64,000 nucleotides of DNA, taken from NCBI RefSeq assembly GCF_000026545.1, contig NC_011601.1. One strand, 5' to 3'. Numbering within the stretch: position 1 is the stretch's first letter; each line of letters opens with the position of its first letter. Below the pieces are notes generated by a model. The model had not been told where the DNA came from. It made no database searches and saw only the letters and a list, made by a program, of their open reading frames with translations. Below are positions 38,147 through 41,508 of this stretch, in pieces. Position numbers and translations under genes: made by a program. The DNA is from Escherichia coli O127:H6 str. E2348/69 (GTDB lineage: Bacteria > Pseudomonadota > Gammaproteobacteria > Enterobacterales > Enterobacteriaceae).

Positions 38147-40201
38147 ATGGTTCAGGATTCATCAGCATTAGCCCCTTTCTTTCGTGCTCAAATTGAAAAA
38201 AATAATCAATACAATTCAGTTTGGGGCAAACACTACCGCGAGCTTGTAGAACAGATTCAGGCCGAAAAACCAAACTTTTCTGAAGCCACGATTCGGCAGG
38301 TATGGTATGAACGTGACAATGGTGTCTCCAGCCTGATGCAAGGTGGGATGTCATTGGTTGAATTTGAAAATGCACAAAAAGACCTTCTAACGCTCACCCG
38401 TCAGATAGCAGAAGAGTGTACACAAGAAAATTATAATCGGGTCATTGAACGTCTTATCAAACTTAAAGCGGACGGAGTATTAAATAAGGTATATAGGGCT
38501 CTTTGTAATCGTGCTTTTGCAGCAATATACCCATCAAAAATTAGCAGTGTCGTGAATGTTAATAATTTTTTTAGTTGCTACAATTATTGCAACAACCATT
38601 TCCAGCTAGGTCTTTCCGGAGAACGGGAGTGGCTGGCTCGCAATGTTGATCTTAAAGAAACGCTAAATCGTGCGCTGGGTGATGATATCGACCCTATTGA
38701 GCTGAATATGTCACTTTGGCATCTCTATGCGTATGAAATTCAGGATAAAAATGCTATCGGTTTAGTTGGAAGCGAAAGTGCTTTACAAGAAAATGAGCAA
38801 GAAGATGATGTTATAAGTTCGCCATTGCCTAAAAACACAATTCTCTATGGCCCGCCAGGTACAGGTAAAACATATCGTACTATTGAGCTTGCTGTACAAA
38901 TTTGTGATCCGATCGCTTACTCCCTGCAGGAGGGTAAGGATGAGAGTGAAAAACGTCGCGAGTTGAAAAAGATTTATGATCAGCTTATCAAAGATAATCG
39001 AGTGCGTTTTATCACCTTTCATCAGAGCTTTGGTTATGAAGAGTTTATTGAAGGTTTAAGAGCTGAGACTACTGATGACGGTAATGTAAAATACGAAATA
39101 AAGGCAGGTATTTTTAAACAGATATGCGAGGATGCCGCCTTTGGTCATGCTGGTGCGCAGGAAATGTTGGATAGCGCACTTACTCGCCTACAAGAACGTT
39201 TATCTGAAGGTGAAAATATCACGCTGGAAACACAACAGGGTAAGGCCTTCCAGCTGACGTATAAAAGTCAAACCAACTTTGGAATTTTTCCGTCACAATC
39301 GAAAAAAGAGGATTTAGGACAGGGTTACAATGCCTATTTGAAGGATATTCGGCAAGTTTATCAGGATCCACGAGCAAAAGTACATAATCCATCTTATGTA
39401 CGCAGTATCCTTAACTATTTAATTAATCAACGTTATCTGCCTCTGAATACTCAGAGCGTAGCTTCAGAAAAAAAGGAAAACTATGTTCTCATTATTGATG
39501 AAATAAATCGGGGTAATATTTCAAAAATTTTTGGTGAACTAATTACCCTTATTGAGCCATCTAAACGGGCTGGTGAGCCAGAATCGCTTAGCGTATTGCT
39601 GCCATACTCTTCCACTCCATTTAGTGTACCGAATAACCTTTATTTAATTGGTACCATGAACACTGCTGATCATTCGCTTACTGCACTTGATACTGCACTA
39701 CGTCGCAGATTTGATTTTGAAGCGATGCTGCCAGATATTACTGTTCTGAAAGATACTGTCATTAAAGGTATTGATCTGCCTCGTCTATTGCAGACGCTTA
39801 ACGATCGCATCCAGGTTTTATACGATAGAGAACATATGCTGGGGCATGCTTTTTTTATCCCTGTTGTGCAGGCAAAAGAAGACGAAGCTCTGGCATTTGA
39901 AAGATTCAAACGGATTATGCGAAATAAGATACTACCATTGCTGGAAGAATATTTTTACAATGACTGGCAAAAAATTCGCATGGTACTGGCTGATAACCAA
40001 AAAGAGGAAGCACCAGATCTTCAATTTGTACGTGAGGTGAAATACCAGAAAAAGTATGCCGATCTCTTTGGTGATAACGGAACAGATGACTTGGGAACCA
40101 GTTTTCACCTGGCAGCAGAGGATGACAACGTTTGGGACAATCCAATCGCCTGGCAGCAAATTTATGCACCTCAAAAAGAAAAACGCAGGAGTGCGGAATG
40201 A
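38147..40201 (+). CDS. McrB-family GTPase/AAA+ subunit of a modification-dependent (type IV) restriction system, with an extended N-terminal domain
   Basis: 684-aa ORF; GPPGTGKT Walker A, LIIDEINRGN Walker B, MNTADHSLTALDTALRRRFDF McrB-type motif; N-terminal ~230 aa not recognised. Confidence 0.75.
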   Translation: MVQDSSALAPFFRAQIEKNNQYNSVWGKHYRELVEQIQAEKPNFSEATIRQVWYERDNGVSSLMQGGMSLVEFENAQKDLLTLTRQIAEECTQENYNRVIERLIKLKADGVLNKVYRALCNRAFAAIYPSKISSVVNVNNFFSCYNYCNNHFQLGLSGEREWLARNVDLKETLNRALGDDIDPIELNMSLWHLYAYEIQDKNAIGLVGSESALQENEQEDDVISSPLPKNTILYGPPGTGKTYRTIELAVQICDPIAYSLQEGKDESEKRRELKKIYDQLIKDNRVRFITFHQSFGYEEFIEGLRAETTDDGNVKYEIKAGIFKQICEDAAFGHAGAQEMLDSALTRLQERLSEGENITLETQQGKAFQLTYKSQTNFGIFPSQSKKEDLGQGYNAYLKDIRQVYQDPRAKVHNPSYVRSILNYLINQRYLPLNTQSVASEKKENYVLIIDEINRGNISKIFGELITLIEPSKRAGEPESLSVLLPYSSTPFSVPNNLYLIGTMNTADHSLTALDTALRRRFDFEAMLPDITVLKDTVIKGIDLPRLLQTLNDRIQVLYDREHMLGHAFFIPVVQAKEDEALAFERFKRIMRNKILPLLEEYFYNDWQKIRMVLADNQKEEAPDLQFVREVKYQKKYADLFGDNGTDDLGTSFHLAAEDDNVWDNPIAWQQIYAPQKEKRRSAE

Positions 40202-41508
40202 AATCTTCCAGTCATTTCACTGTGTTCGAATACGGGCATTTAGTGAGTGAGGAAGGTGATGCCCGTATAAATAATGCGGTAGTGCTACCTGCAGACCTAT
40301 TTAAATGGCTTGAGCTGCGCTGTCTGAAAGACGATGCTGATAATACTCATCGTTTGCTCACCCTTAGCAGCCGGAATGGAGTAAAAACGCTGCAGGTAAA
40401 AAACTATGCAGGAGTAATCTCACTGCCAGGGGGGCGATTTCTCGAAATCCTGCCTAAAACAGGTCAGGATAATGAGGATACTGTTCGTCAACAATTACTG
40501 ATGATGTTACGTACGTTAAAATCATTTCGTCATATTGCCTCCTCTGAATCTGGCGTCAAAATATCTAAAATGCCTCTGATGGATATCTTTATTCAACAAT
40601 TTATAGAGAGCGTGCGTAAGATTGTGCAGAGAGGGTTAAAACGTGACTATTTACGTCAGGAAGATAATCTTCCATGGATGAAAGGAAGATTACGGATCTC
40701 TGCACAATTAAGCAAAAACTGTATTAGGCGGGATCGTTTTCAGGTGGAGTATGACGAGTACAGCGTCAATCGTCTGGAAAACCGGATACTCAAAACTGCA
40801 ATCAATAAGATTAGTCGCCAGACCAGTAATCCACAATTATTACAGCAGATAACACAGCTGCAGTTTCACTTTGAAAATATCACGTCAGTTCATGATGCTT
40901 ATATAGCTTTCGAGCAGTTACACTTTGATAGACAAATGCATCACTATGAGCAAGCATTAGCGTGGGCGAAGATGATTTTATTGGGCGATTCTCCACACTG
41001 TATGTATGGGGATGTTAATGCTTTTTCACTGCTTTTCCCGATGGAGGCTGTTTTTGAATCTTTTGTGACGACATGGATGCGTTATCGTTATTATGATAAA
41101 TGGCGAGTGGACGCACAGGTAAGTTCAAAAAATCTGATTAGTTATAACGGTAAAGCTTTATTTAAGCTGCGGCCTGATATTTGTTTACGGCCTCGTAAAA
41201 GTACTACTGGTTCAGTTATTACCTGTGATGTTAAATGGAAGATAGTAAATGGCAGAAAGGACAGTCTTGAACAATCTCAAGCCGATCTCTACCAAATGCT
41301 TGCCTATGGATTGAATTACCAGGAGGGGGAAGGTGATATGATTTTGATATACCCCTATCATAACGGATTTAATCAGCCATCTCCTCATCCTTATGAATTT
41401 AGCCATCAGAAGGAAAATAGGTTACGTTTATGGGTTGTACCTTTCTTTATTGGCGAGAGTTTACAAACATCAGAGTTGCGTTTTCCTGGTGGGGCTGAAT
41501 TTATTTAG
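40198..41508 (+). CDS. McrC-like nuclease subunit
   Basis: 436-aa ORF whose ATG overlaps the McrB-like stop (ATGA); partner position and size typical of McrC; possible PD-(D/E)xK-like residues near the C-terminus. Confidence 0.65.
   Translation: MKSSSHFTVFEYGHLVSEEGDARINNAVVLPADLFKWLELRCLKDDADNTHRLLTLSSRNGVKTLQVKNYAGVISLPGGRFLEILPKTGQDNEDTVRQQLLMMLRTLKSFRHIASSESGVKISKMPLMDIFIQQFIESVRKIVQRGLKRDYLRQEDNLPWMKGRLRISAQLSKNCIRRDRFQVEYDEYSVNRLENRILKTAINKISRQTSNPQLLQQITQLQFHFENITSVHDAYIAFEQLHFDRQMHHYEQALAWAKMILLGDSPHCMYGDVNAFSLLFPMEAVFESFVTTWMRYRYYDKWRVDAQVSSKNLISYNGKALFKLRPDICLRPRKSTTGSVITCDVKWKIVNGRKDSLEQSQADLYQMLAYGLNYQEGEGDMILIYPYHNGFNQPSPHPYEFSHQKENRLRLWVVPFFIGESLQTSELRFPGGAEFI

Follow-up and report, generated by a model that had tools for sequence, protein, structure and literature searches.

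McrBC is the textbook modification-dependent restriction enzyme, and few of its reader domains have been characterized (DUF3578, YTH, EVE/PUA, and B3). The known McrB readers are beta-rich. In Escherichia coli K-12, EcoKMcrBC is encoded by a two-gene operon (B, then C) in the immigration control region, next to hsdRMS, and its McrB subunit reads flipped 5-methylcytosine (5mC) through an MrcB_N/DUF3578 domain. In Thermococcus gammatolerans McrBC (PDB 6ut3 to 6ut8), this reader is swapped for a YTH-like domain that binds 6-methyladenine (PMC12707154). LlaJI combines an McrB-like NTPase and an McrC-like nuclease with a further non-canonical N-terminal DNA-binding domain, a B3 domain that reads an unmodified site, and needs two methyltransferases. 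Here, we describe an McrB-McrC pair at positions 38147 to 41508 of a 64,000-nucleotide window (the whole stretch of DNA analyzed) from E. coli O127:H6 strain E2348/69 (NC_011601.1), in which the reader position of McrB is taken by an all-helical module with a predicted glycosylase-like fold. No paper dealing with E2348/69 together with McrBC was found in the literature searched.

A separate group of enzymes bears on this module. END nucleases restrict phages that carry a variety of hypermodified bases (Yee et al. 2025, bioRxiv 10.1101/2025.03.31.646159, PMC12191111), and their specificity has been shown experimentally to be set by a C-terminal, catalytically inactive EndoIII/Ogg-like domain termed iEndoIII. 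By reciprocal search, the same study reported the iEndoIII sensor in fusions with a NucS-like PD-DExK nuclease and with an McrB-like GTPase. END-Mag, which is the NucS-like fusion, restricts phages that contain modified guanines, and the iEndoIII-McrB fusion is drawn in Fig. 4g of that work without testing (PMC12191111). The combination of McrB with a glycosylase-like sensor has been noted once, in a preprint, and the E2348/69 pair is a candidate member of this known class. The pair, which about 6% of complete E. coli genomes carry, is a naturally occurring case from a model pathogen of a reader that is apparently a repair-glycosylase fold turned sensor, a principle shown experimentally so far only for the single-chain END nucleases.

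The first gene of the pair (38147..40201, plus strand) is an intact open reading frame (ORF) for a 684-amino-acid (aa) McrB-family AAA+ GTPase (WP_000249522.1; RefSeq "McrB family protein"; Pfam AAA_5). The second (40198..41508, plus strand), likewise intact, encodes a 436-aa McrC-family endonuclease subunit (WP_000842795.1; RefSeq "McrC family protein"), and the McrB stop codon overlaps the McrC start codon as ATGA, in GGAATGAAA. An earlier analysis made from the DNA letters alone (the sequence-only reading) had proposed both ORFs, their overlap, and an McrBC-like assignment of the pair, and homology bears all of this out. Residues ~226 to 621 of the 684-aa protein align to the AAA+ region of solved McrB structures, those of T. 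gammatolerans (TgMcrB; 6ut3, E value of 1.2e-52) and E. coli (EcMcrB; 6hz4, 5.6e-30), and Pfam McrB_lid is matched by relatives of this protein. The McrB-type GTPase core and lid (residues 229 to 620; 38831..40006, plus strand) contain every motif listed in that reading: Walker A GPPGTGKT (residues 235 to 242; 38849-38872), Walker B IIDEINRG (residues 449 to 456; 39491-39514), the NTAD (NxxD) signature MNTAD (residues 504 to 508; 39656-39670), and RRRFDF (residues 519 to 524; 39701-39718), all on the plus strand. All four line up column for column with their counterparts in TgMcrB and EcMcrB ("igtMNTADrS...lRRRF" for the last two).

The 436-aa protein matches Pfam McrBC (PF10117, DUF2357) over the full model (residues 65 to 386, 3.8e-100) and, in the PDB, the McrC subunits of T. 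gammatolerans (TgMcrC; 3.8e-18) and E. coli (EcMcrC; 3.9e-06). Its PD...DxK nuclease motif consists of RPD at residues 325 to 327 and DVK at residues 344 to 346 (41170..41241, plus strand), aligned to "kPDyvv...lDaKyr" of TgMcrC. T. gammatolerans McrBC is the nearest solved relative of both subunits. The pair shares with EcoKMcrBC the B-then-C operon, the location in the immigration control region beside hsdRMS, the GTPase with Walker A, Walker B, NxxD, and RRRF, and the McrC with a DUF2357/McrBC domain and PD...DxK; it differs in its orientation and neighbors, in its reader, and in a core extended by an insertion and a tail. Against the NCBIfam equivalog for EcoK McrB (NF008457), the 684-aa protein scores 116.8 bits, compared with a cut-off of 637, and its best stretch covers only residues 440 to 610; the 436-aa protein scores 108 bits against the McrC equivalog, with a cut-off of 338. 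As both scores fall far below the equivalog cut-offs, sequence comparison identifies the two proteins as McrBC family members and not as EcoKMcrBC orthologues.

The sequence-only reading had stressed an unusually long N-terminal domain. The region before Walker A is indeed ~228 aa long (the corresponding regions are ~161 aa in EcoK McrB and ~185 aa in TgMcrB), but the description was overstated, as much of the extra length lies in an AAA+ insertion and a C-terminal tail. In the PDB alignments, the 225 residues by which the protein exceeds K-12 McrB are only partly N-terminal; the extra length is spread over the ~228-aa pre-ATPase region, ~25 aa after Walker A, an insertion of ~110 aa (residues ~331 to 440; 39137..39466, plus strand) between the FHQS...EGxR segment and Walker B, and a 64-aa tail after the lid (residues 621 to 684; 40007..40198, plus strand), beyond the part that aligns to solved McrB. 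The insertion site holds 64 aa in TgMcrB, where the stretch from Walker A to Walker B is likewise extended, and 2 aa in EcMcrB (chain residues 105 to 107 bracket query residues 330 to 440). Across the family of proteins with the same N-terminal module, the spacing between the two Walker motifs runs from ~80 to ~310 aa, and the insertion is 26 to 38% identical among relatives. No family or structure match was found for residues ~331 to 440. McrB GTPase domains often carry inserts, which have been suggested to be able to encode specificity domains (Bell et al. 2024), and the insertion here could be a second DNA-contacting element.

The N-terminal region consists of an all-helical module of 10 helices (residues 1 to 208; 38147..38770, plus strand), our candidate base or DNA sensor with an Ogg2/EndoIII-like fold, and an acidic linker of low model confidence (residues 209 to 228; 38771..38830, plus strand). 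Searches of Pfam, PDB sequences, NCBIfam, PADLOC, and PHROG gave no match to residues 1 to 228 or to the module, which agrees with the ~230 aa of unrecognized sequence reported earlier. The earlier view that this is not the canonical McrB reader also stands: the module is predicted to be all-alpha, and Pfam MrcB_N/DUF3578 matches neither the 684-aa protein nor any of 45 module homologs. A word-indexed homolog search, with the single sequence or a 45-sequence profile, returned only 10 short fragments; we instead used exhaustive HMMER with a small profile over 1.84 billion representative proteins, which recovered 171 clusters at an E value of ≤1e-3 and 100 at ≤1e-10. The module thus defines a sizeable domain family without Pfam annotation. 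In every McrB-type match, it ends ~25 to 40 aa before Walker A. Identity within the family is 26 to 41% for the module versus 51 to 65% for the GTPase core; such faster divergence is expected of a specificity element but is also compatible with weaker constraint.

The module is also found in proteins that have no McrB part. Approximately 15 clusters join it to a ~145-aa C-terminal domain with invariant D, ExK, and GQ..Y (D..ExK..GQLLEY), a pattern that by itself suggests a PD-(D/E)xK nuclease; a PDB profile search with this domain gave no NucS match. Two further clusters join the module to a NOV_C-type nuclease matching the PD-T4-1 defense protein, and a DUF262 protein with the same module is present in the AlphaFold database. 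In one Type I operon, a single-chain form is encoded between hsdS and hsdR, and module-nuclease fusions are also found alone among housekeeping genes. Because the module is shuffled among alternative defense nuclease effectors, it behaves as a specificity (sensor) domain rather than as an accessory of the AAA+ ring.

AlphaFold2 modeling of the module from the 45-sequence alignment gave a compact ten-helix bundle ending at about residue 208 (mean predicted local distance difference test score [pLDDT] of 91.6; predicted template modeling score of 0.85), followed by the acidic linker, which is disordered in the model (pLDDT of 57 to 67 after residue 208). A model of the full 684 aa built without an alignment had a pLDDT of 34 and was not used. 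The best structural matches of the module model are Ogg2 (archaeal and bacterial Ogg), MutY, and EndoIII, and the matched enzymes are active glycosylases. Across the 45 members, W26, W53, R122, and W162 are invariant, N58, N166, N187, and W191 are 91 to 98% conserved, and Y30, G66, and P129 are also nearly invariant. No Asp or Lys is invariant, the most conserved being D182 (71%) and K77 (67%). This pattern speaks against catalysis as a glycosylase and is in keeping with a base-binding pocket of aromatic and polar residues. We also aligned residues 109 to 137 (DGVLNKVYRALCNRAFAAIYPSKISSVVN) by eye with the HhH-to-Asp segment of EndoIII, which placed Ser/Thr at the position of the catalytic Asp; although suggestive to the eye, this alignment does not rise above noise in hhalign, and we do not use it as evidence.

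On balance, the pair is probably a GTP-dependent Type IV McrBC restriction enzyme with a base-flipping reader derived from a glycosylase. By homology, the C-terminal two-thirds of the 684-aa protein would form the hexameric McrB AAA+ GTPase ring, with the helical 208-residue sensor, derived from or mimicking the HhH-GPD glycosylase fold (Ogg2/EndoIII type), in place of the 5mC-flipping reader of K-12 McrB. The N-terminal modules of the hexamer would bind DNA with a non-canonical base, probably flipped into a Trp/Asn/Arg pocket, and, because the module has no invariant catalytic Asp or Lys, the extruded base would be held and not excised. Binding would tether the translocase-nuclease to foreign DNA, mainly that of phages, with modified or hypermodified bases. 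McrC would then dock in the ring and stimulate GTP hydrolysis, and translocation would lead to a double-strand cut by PD...DxK; these steps after binding follow what is known from the complexes solved for E. coli and T. gammatolerans. As the enzyme would not engage host DNA that is unmodified, it would need no cognate methyltransferase.

The sequence-only reading had suggested that the reader targets a different DNA modification from canonical McrBC. We infer the same, now on a better footing, because the module is conserved, mobile, fused to alternative nucleases, and glycosylase-like in its predicted fold. It resembles the END/iEndoIII sensors in lacking an invariant Asp or Lys, in two of its classes of fusion partner, and, more tentatively, in having Ogg and EndoIII among its best structural matches, whereas those END enzymes that have been characterized are single-chain PLD nucleases and carry the sensor C-terminally. 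More tentatively, and with somewhat less than an even chance of being correct, a dead base-flipping module of the Ogg2/EndoIII type may give this McrBC a broad specificity for non-canonical bases, such as 7-deazaguanines and glucosyl-5-hydroxymethylcytosine. If so, a generalist, GTP-driven restriction enzyme directed at hypermodified phages would be present in about 6% of E. coli, and the many relatives that have additional readers upstream would act as two-sensor machines with combined specificities. Restriction of hypermodified DNA by an McrBC variant would be relevant to host range in phage therapy and to cloning or transforming DNA into strains of the enteropathogenic E. coli lineage.

Several results weigh against a glycosylase-derived reader. 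Pfam assigns no family, HhH-GPD included, to any of the 45 module members, a PDB profile search with the module found nothing, and hhalign of the module against E. coli Nth gave a probability of 0.2%. Since these sequence-level tests are negative, the glycosylase-like fold is consistent with the data but only a moderate inference from the predicted structure. The identification of the module with the published iEndoIII family is circumstantial, with END compared through its published description. Finally, readers or reader-like domains (MrcB_N, EVE, DUF3427, and a domain described below as WNP) lie upstream of the module in about half of its relatives; as other readers precede it there, the module could have a role other than reading.

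This last point is the basis of the alternative that survives best, in which the module serves this McrB clade as a structural or regulatory adaptor, such as a lever between reader and ring or an element for oligomerization or autoinhibition. The module-only form in E2348/69 would then select DNA through the AAA+ insertion or McrC, or load on it non-specifically. Among the best 150 matches, ~70 have 90 to 530 aa before the module. A 137-aa domain with the pattern LLxWNP...W.C...GDxVYLxRLG.EP.GIVA.G (WNP domain) is N-terminal to the module in 41 clusters, sometimes with further sequence before it. This domain has no Pfam or PDB sequence match (relatives P0040 to P0138), apart from a weak EVE match in one member (E value of 0.076), and is probably an unannotated PUA/EVE-like reader. 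A second upstream domain of ~110 aa is common to 11 clusters, and individual module proteins carry MrcB_N, EVE, DUF3427, or NOV_C. The variable AAA+ insertion, as a possible specificity site (Bell et al. 2024), would also suit an adaptor.

We nevertheless consider the adaptor unlikely. A ring-specific adaptor leaves unexplained why the module is also fused directly to small nucleases that have no AAA+ ring, and the near-invariant Trp, Asn, and Arg residues fit a ligand pocket. Tandem readers are usual in Type IV enzymes, so that a second reader in front of the module is no anomaly. Stand-alone pairs of module-only McrB and McrC are also common. Besides the E2348/69 protein, at least 22 full-length clusters among the matches listed are module-only. 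Because many relatives carry extra domains 5' of the module, the E2348/69 protein is a minimal, module-only form, and the N-terminal region that had seemed unusually long is short beside those of the many relatives with one or more further reader domains in front.

The gene context of seven relatives bears on a second alternative, in which the module reads an unmodified sequence, like the B3 domain of LlaJI.R1, and the pair is the restriction half of a classical restriction-modification (R-M) system whose host DNA is methylated by, for example, HsdM. McrBC relatives that act on unmodified sites exist (PMC12707154), and the pair adjoins hsdRMS in E2348/69 and Type I R-M genes in three of the seven relatives (L003, L005, and L010). 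However, canonical modification-dependent McrBC also typically adjoins Type I R-M genes. In all seven relatives, McrC lies directly 3' of McrB, and none of the seven neighborhoods contains a dedicated orphan methyltransferase; L002, L004, and L011 have no methyltransferase nearby at all. One of the seven McrB-McrC pairs lies among housekeeping genes, and the lone single-chain module-nuclease fusions in such surroundings would be lethal without protection if they cut unmodified sites. This context suits a Type IV, modification-dependent enzyme that leaves unmodified host DNA unharmed, and recognition of an unmodified site appears improbable. We likewise rejected assignment as an LlaJI-like R-M system: whereas LlaJI needs its two methyltransferases, the family of the E2348/69 pair has no dedicated one, the only R-M genes nearby are a complete Type I hsdRMS, and several relatives lack a methyltransferase.

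Assignment to the CoCoNuT systems was also rejected. [quoted passage not shown]

It is very improbable that the module is an active glycosylase of the Brig1 type that excises a modified base, with McrBC acting on the abasic or nicked product. Its best structural matches are active enzymes, and defense glycosylases exist (cited in PMC12191111 and PMC13160076), but the lack of an invariant Asp or Lys, the absence of an HhH-GPD match in Pfam, and the description of published McrB- and nuclease-fused relatives as catalytically inactive (PMC12191111) all speak against excision.

Of 5,426 complete E. coli genomes, 315 carry the cassette, always on the chromosome and always at ≥99% identity. Some copies among 25 records sampled are truncated or interrupted by insertion sequences (including H35 and H38 to H40), and the neighboring HNH gene has become a pseudogene. 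Even so, it is very unlikely that the pair was acquired horizontally and is now inactive or decaying, given that both ORFs are intact with all catalytic motifs here and in 285 of the 315 carrier genomes (copies covering ≥80% of the query) and that translational coupling through ATGA is kept.

Two of the relatives' loci contain a further gene next to McrB. In L004 (6758-7990) and L005 (6764-7990), a gene for a DUF6161 protein of 408 to 410 aa stops 10 nt short of the McrB start. Identity is 76% between the two DUF6161 proteins but only 48% between the adjoining McrB proteins, which also differ in the presence of the N-terminal WNP domain. Judged by its sequence, the DUF6161 protein may have transmembrane segments near the C terminus, and it may be a third component in this sub-branch.

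A divergent module-McrB (691 aa; module 38% identical) is encoded with its McrC at a different E. coli locus, in pBone7_3 (CP054241.1; L014 5941-9295), and a DNA cytosine methyltransferase gene lies 1.9 kb 3' of this pair. At least two diverged versions of the reader are therefore present in E. coli. A tblastn search of plasmids with the module returned only two E. coli records and no new architecture.

The 5.7 kb surrounding the pair match the chromosome of E2348/69, an enteropathogenic strain, at 100% identity, and the pair is set there in a variant of the immigration control region. According to RefSeq, the order is an integrase/AbiTii islet, hsdR (30628-33744, minus strand), hsdS (33866-35092, minus), hsdM (35089-36645, minus), a DUF4942 gene (36952-37785, plus; Pfam E value of 1.4e-68), the McrB and McrC genes, an HNH gene, an HNH pseudogene, nanS/nanM/nanC, and fim. 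The HNH gene (41571-42500, minus) is convergent with mcrC, 63 bp 3' of it, and encodes a restriction endonuclease that binds phosphorothioated DNA (NCBIfam NF045808; 437 bits versus a cut-off of 180). Because this gene adjoins mcrC, the locus stacks Type I, McrBC-like, and phosphorothioate-dependent restriction. The 360-bp spacer 5' of the McrB gene holds no degraded reader or N-terminal extension, with stops in all frames and no match to a WNP-domain profile. It includes a promoter-like site (38073..38102, plus strand) 45 nt 5' of the McrB start, a weak consensus match of a kind no more frequent in the region than in shuffled sequence.

The DUF4942 gene, between hsdM and mcrB, was considered as a third component and rejected: it is absent from all seven neighborhoods of distant McrB relatives and has no relationship to the DUF6161 gene found just before McrB in two of them. 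Its product matches positions 85 to 287 of the 548-position PHROG profile phrog_6263 (DNA methyltransferase; 4.8e-14).

Other features of the region are of separate interest. Directly beyond hsdR (~28000 to 30300), RefSeq annotates genes for an AbiTii-domain protein and a site-specific integrase, with small HNH, endonuclease, and hypothetical genes ahead of them; this arrangement suggests an integrated defense islet at this end of the immigration control region. On the other side of the pair, a 162-aa HNH ORF (42742-43230, plus strand) has a weak likeness to models of Type IV methyl-directed restriction endonucleases; the 651 bp around it are annotated in RefSeq as a pseudogene of an HNH endonuclease, interrupted by an internal stop. 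The adjacent ORF (43238-44218, minus strand) encodes a full-length NanS-like protein of 326 aa, for which the RefSeq annotation is limited to an internal piece of 345 bp, labeled an incomplete sialate O-acetylesterase pseudogene, a possible annotation inconsistency. Finally, hsdS contains a perfect 12-bp tandem repeat of 3.3 copies (34477-34516, minus strand) that encodes three TAEL units in the central part of HsdS. In Type IC enzymes, the number of TAEL repeats sets the length of the spacer in the recognition site, as in EcoR124I versus EcoR124II; given this rule and the three repeats, HsdS may be a Type IC subunit prone to specificity switching.

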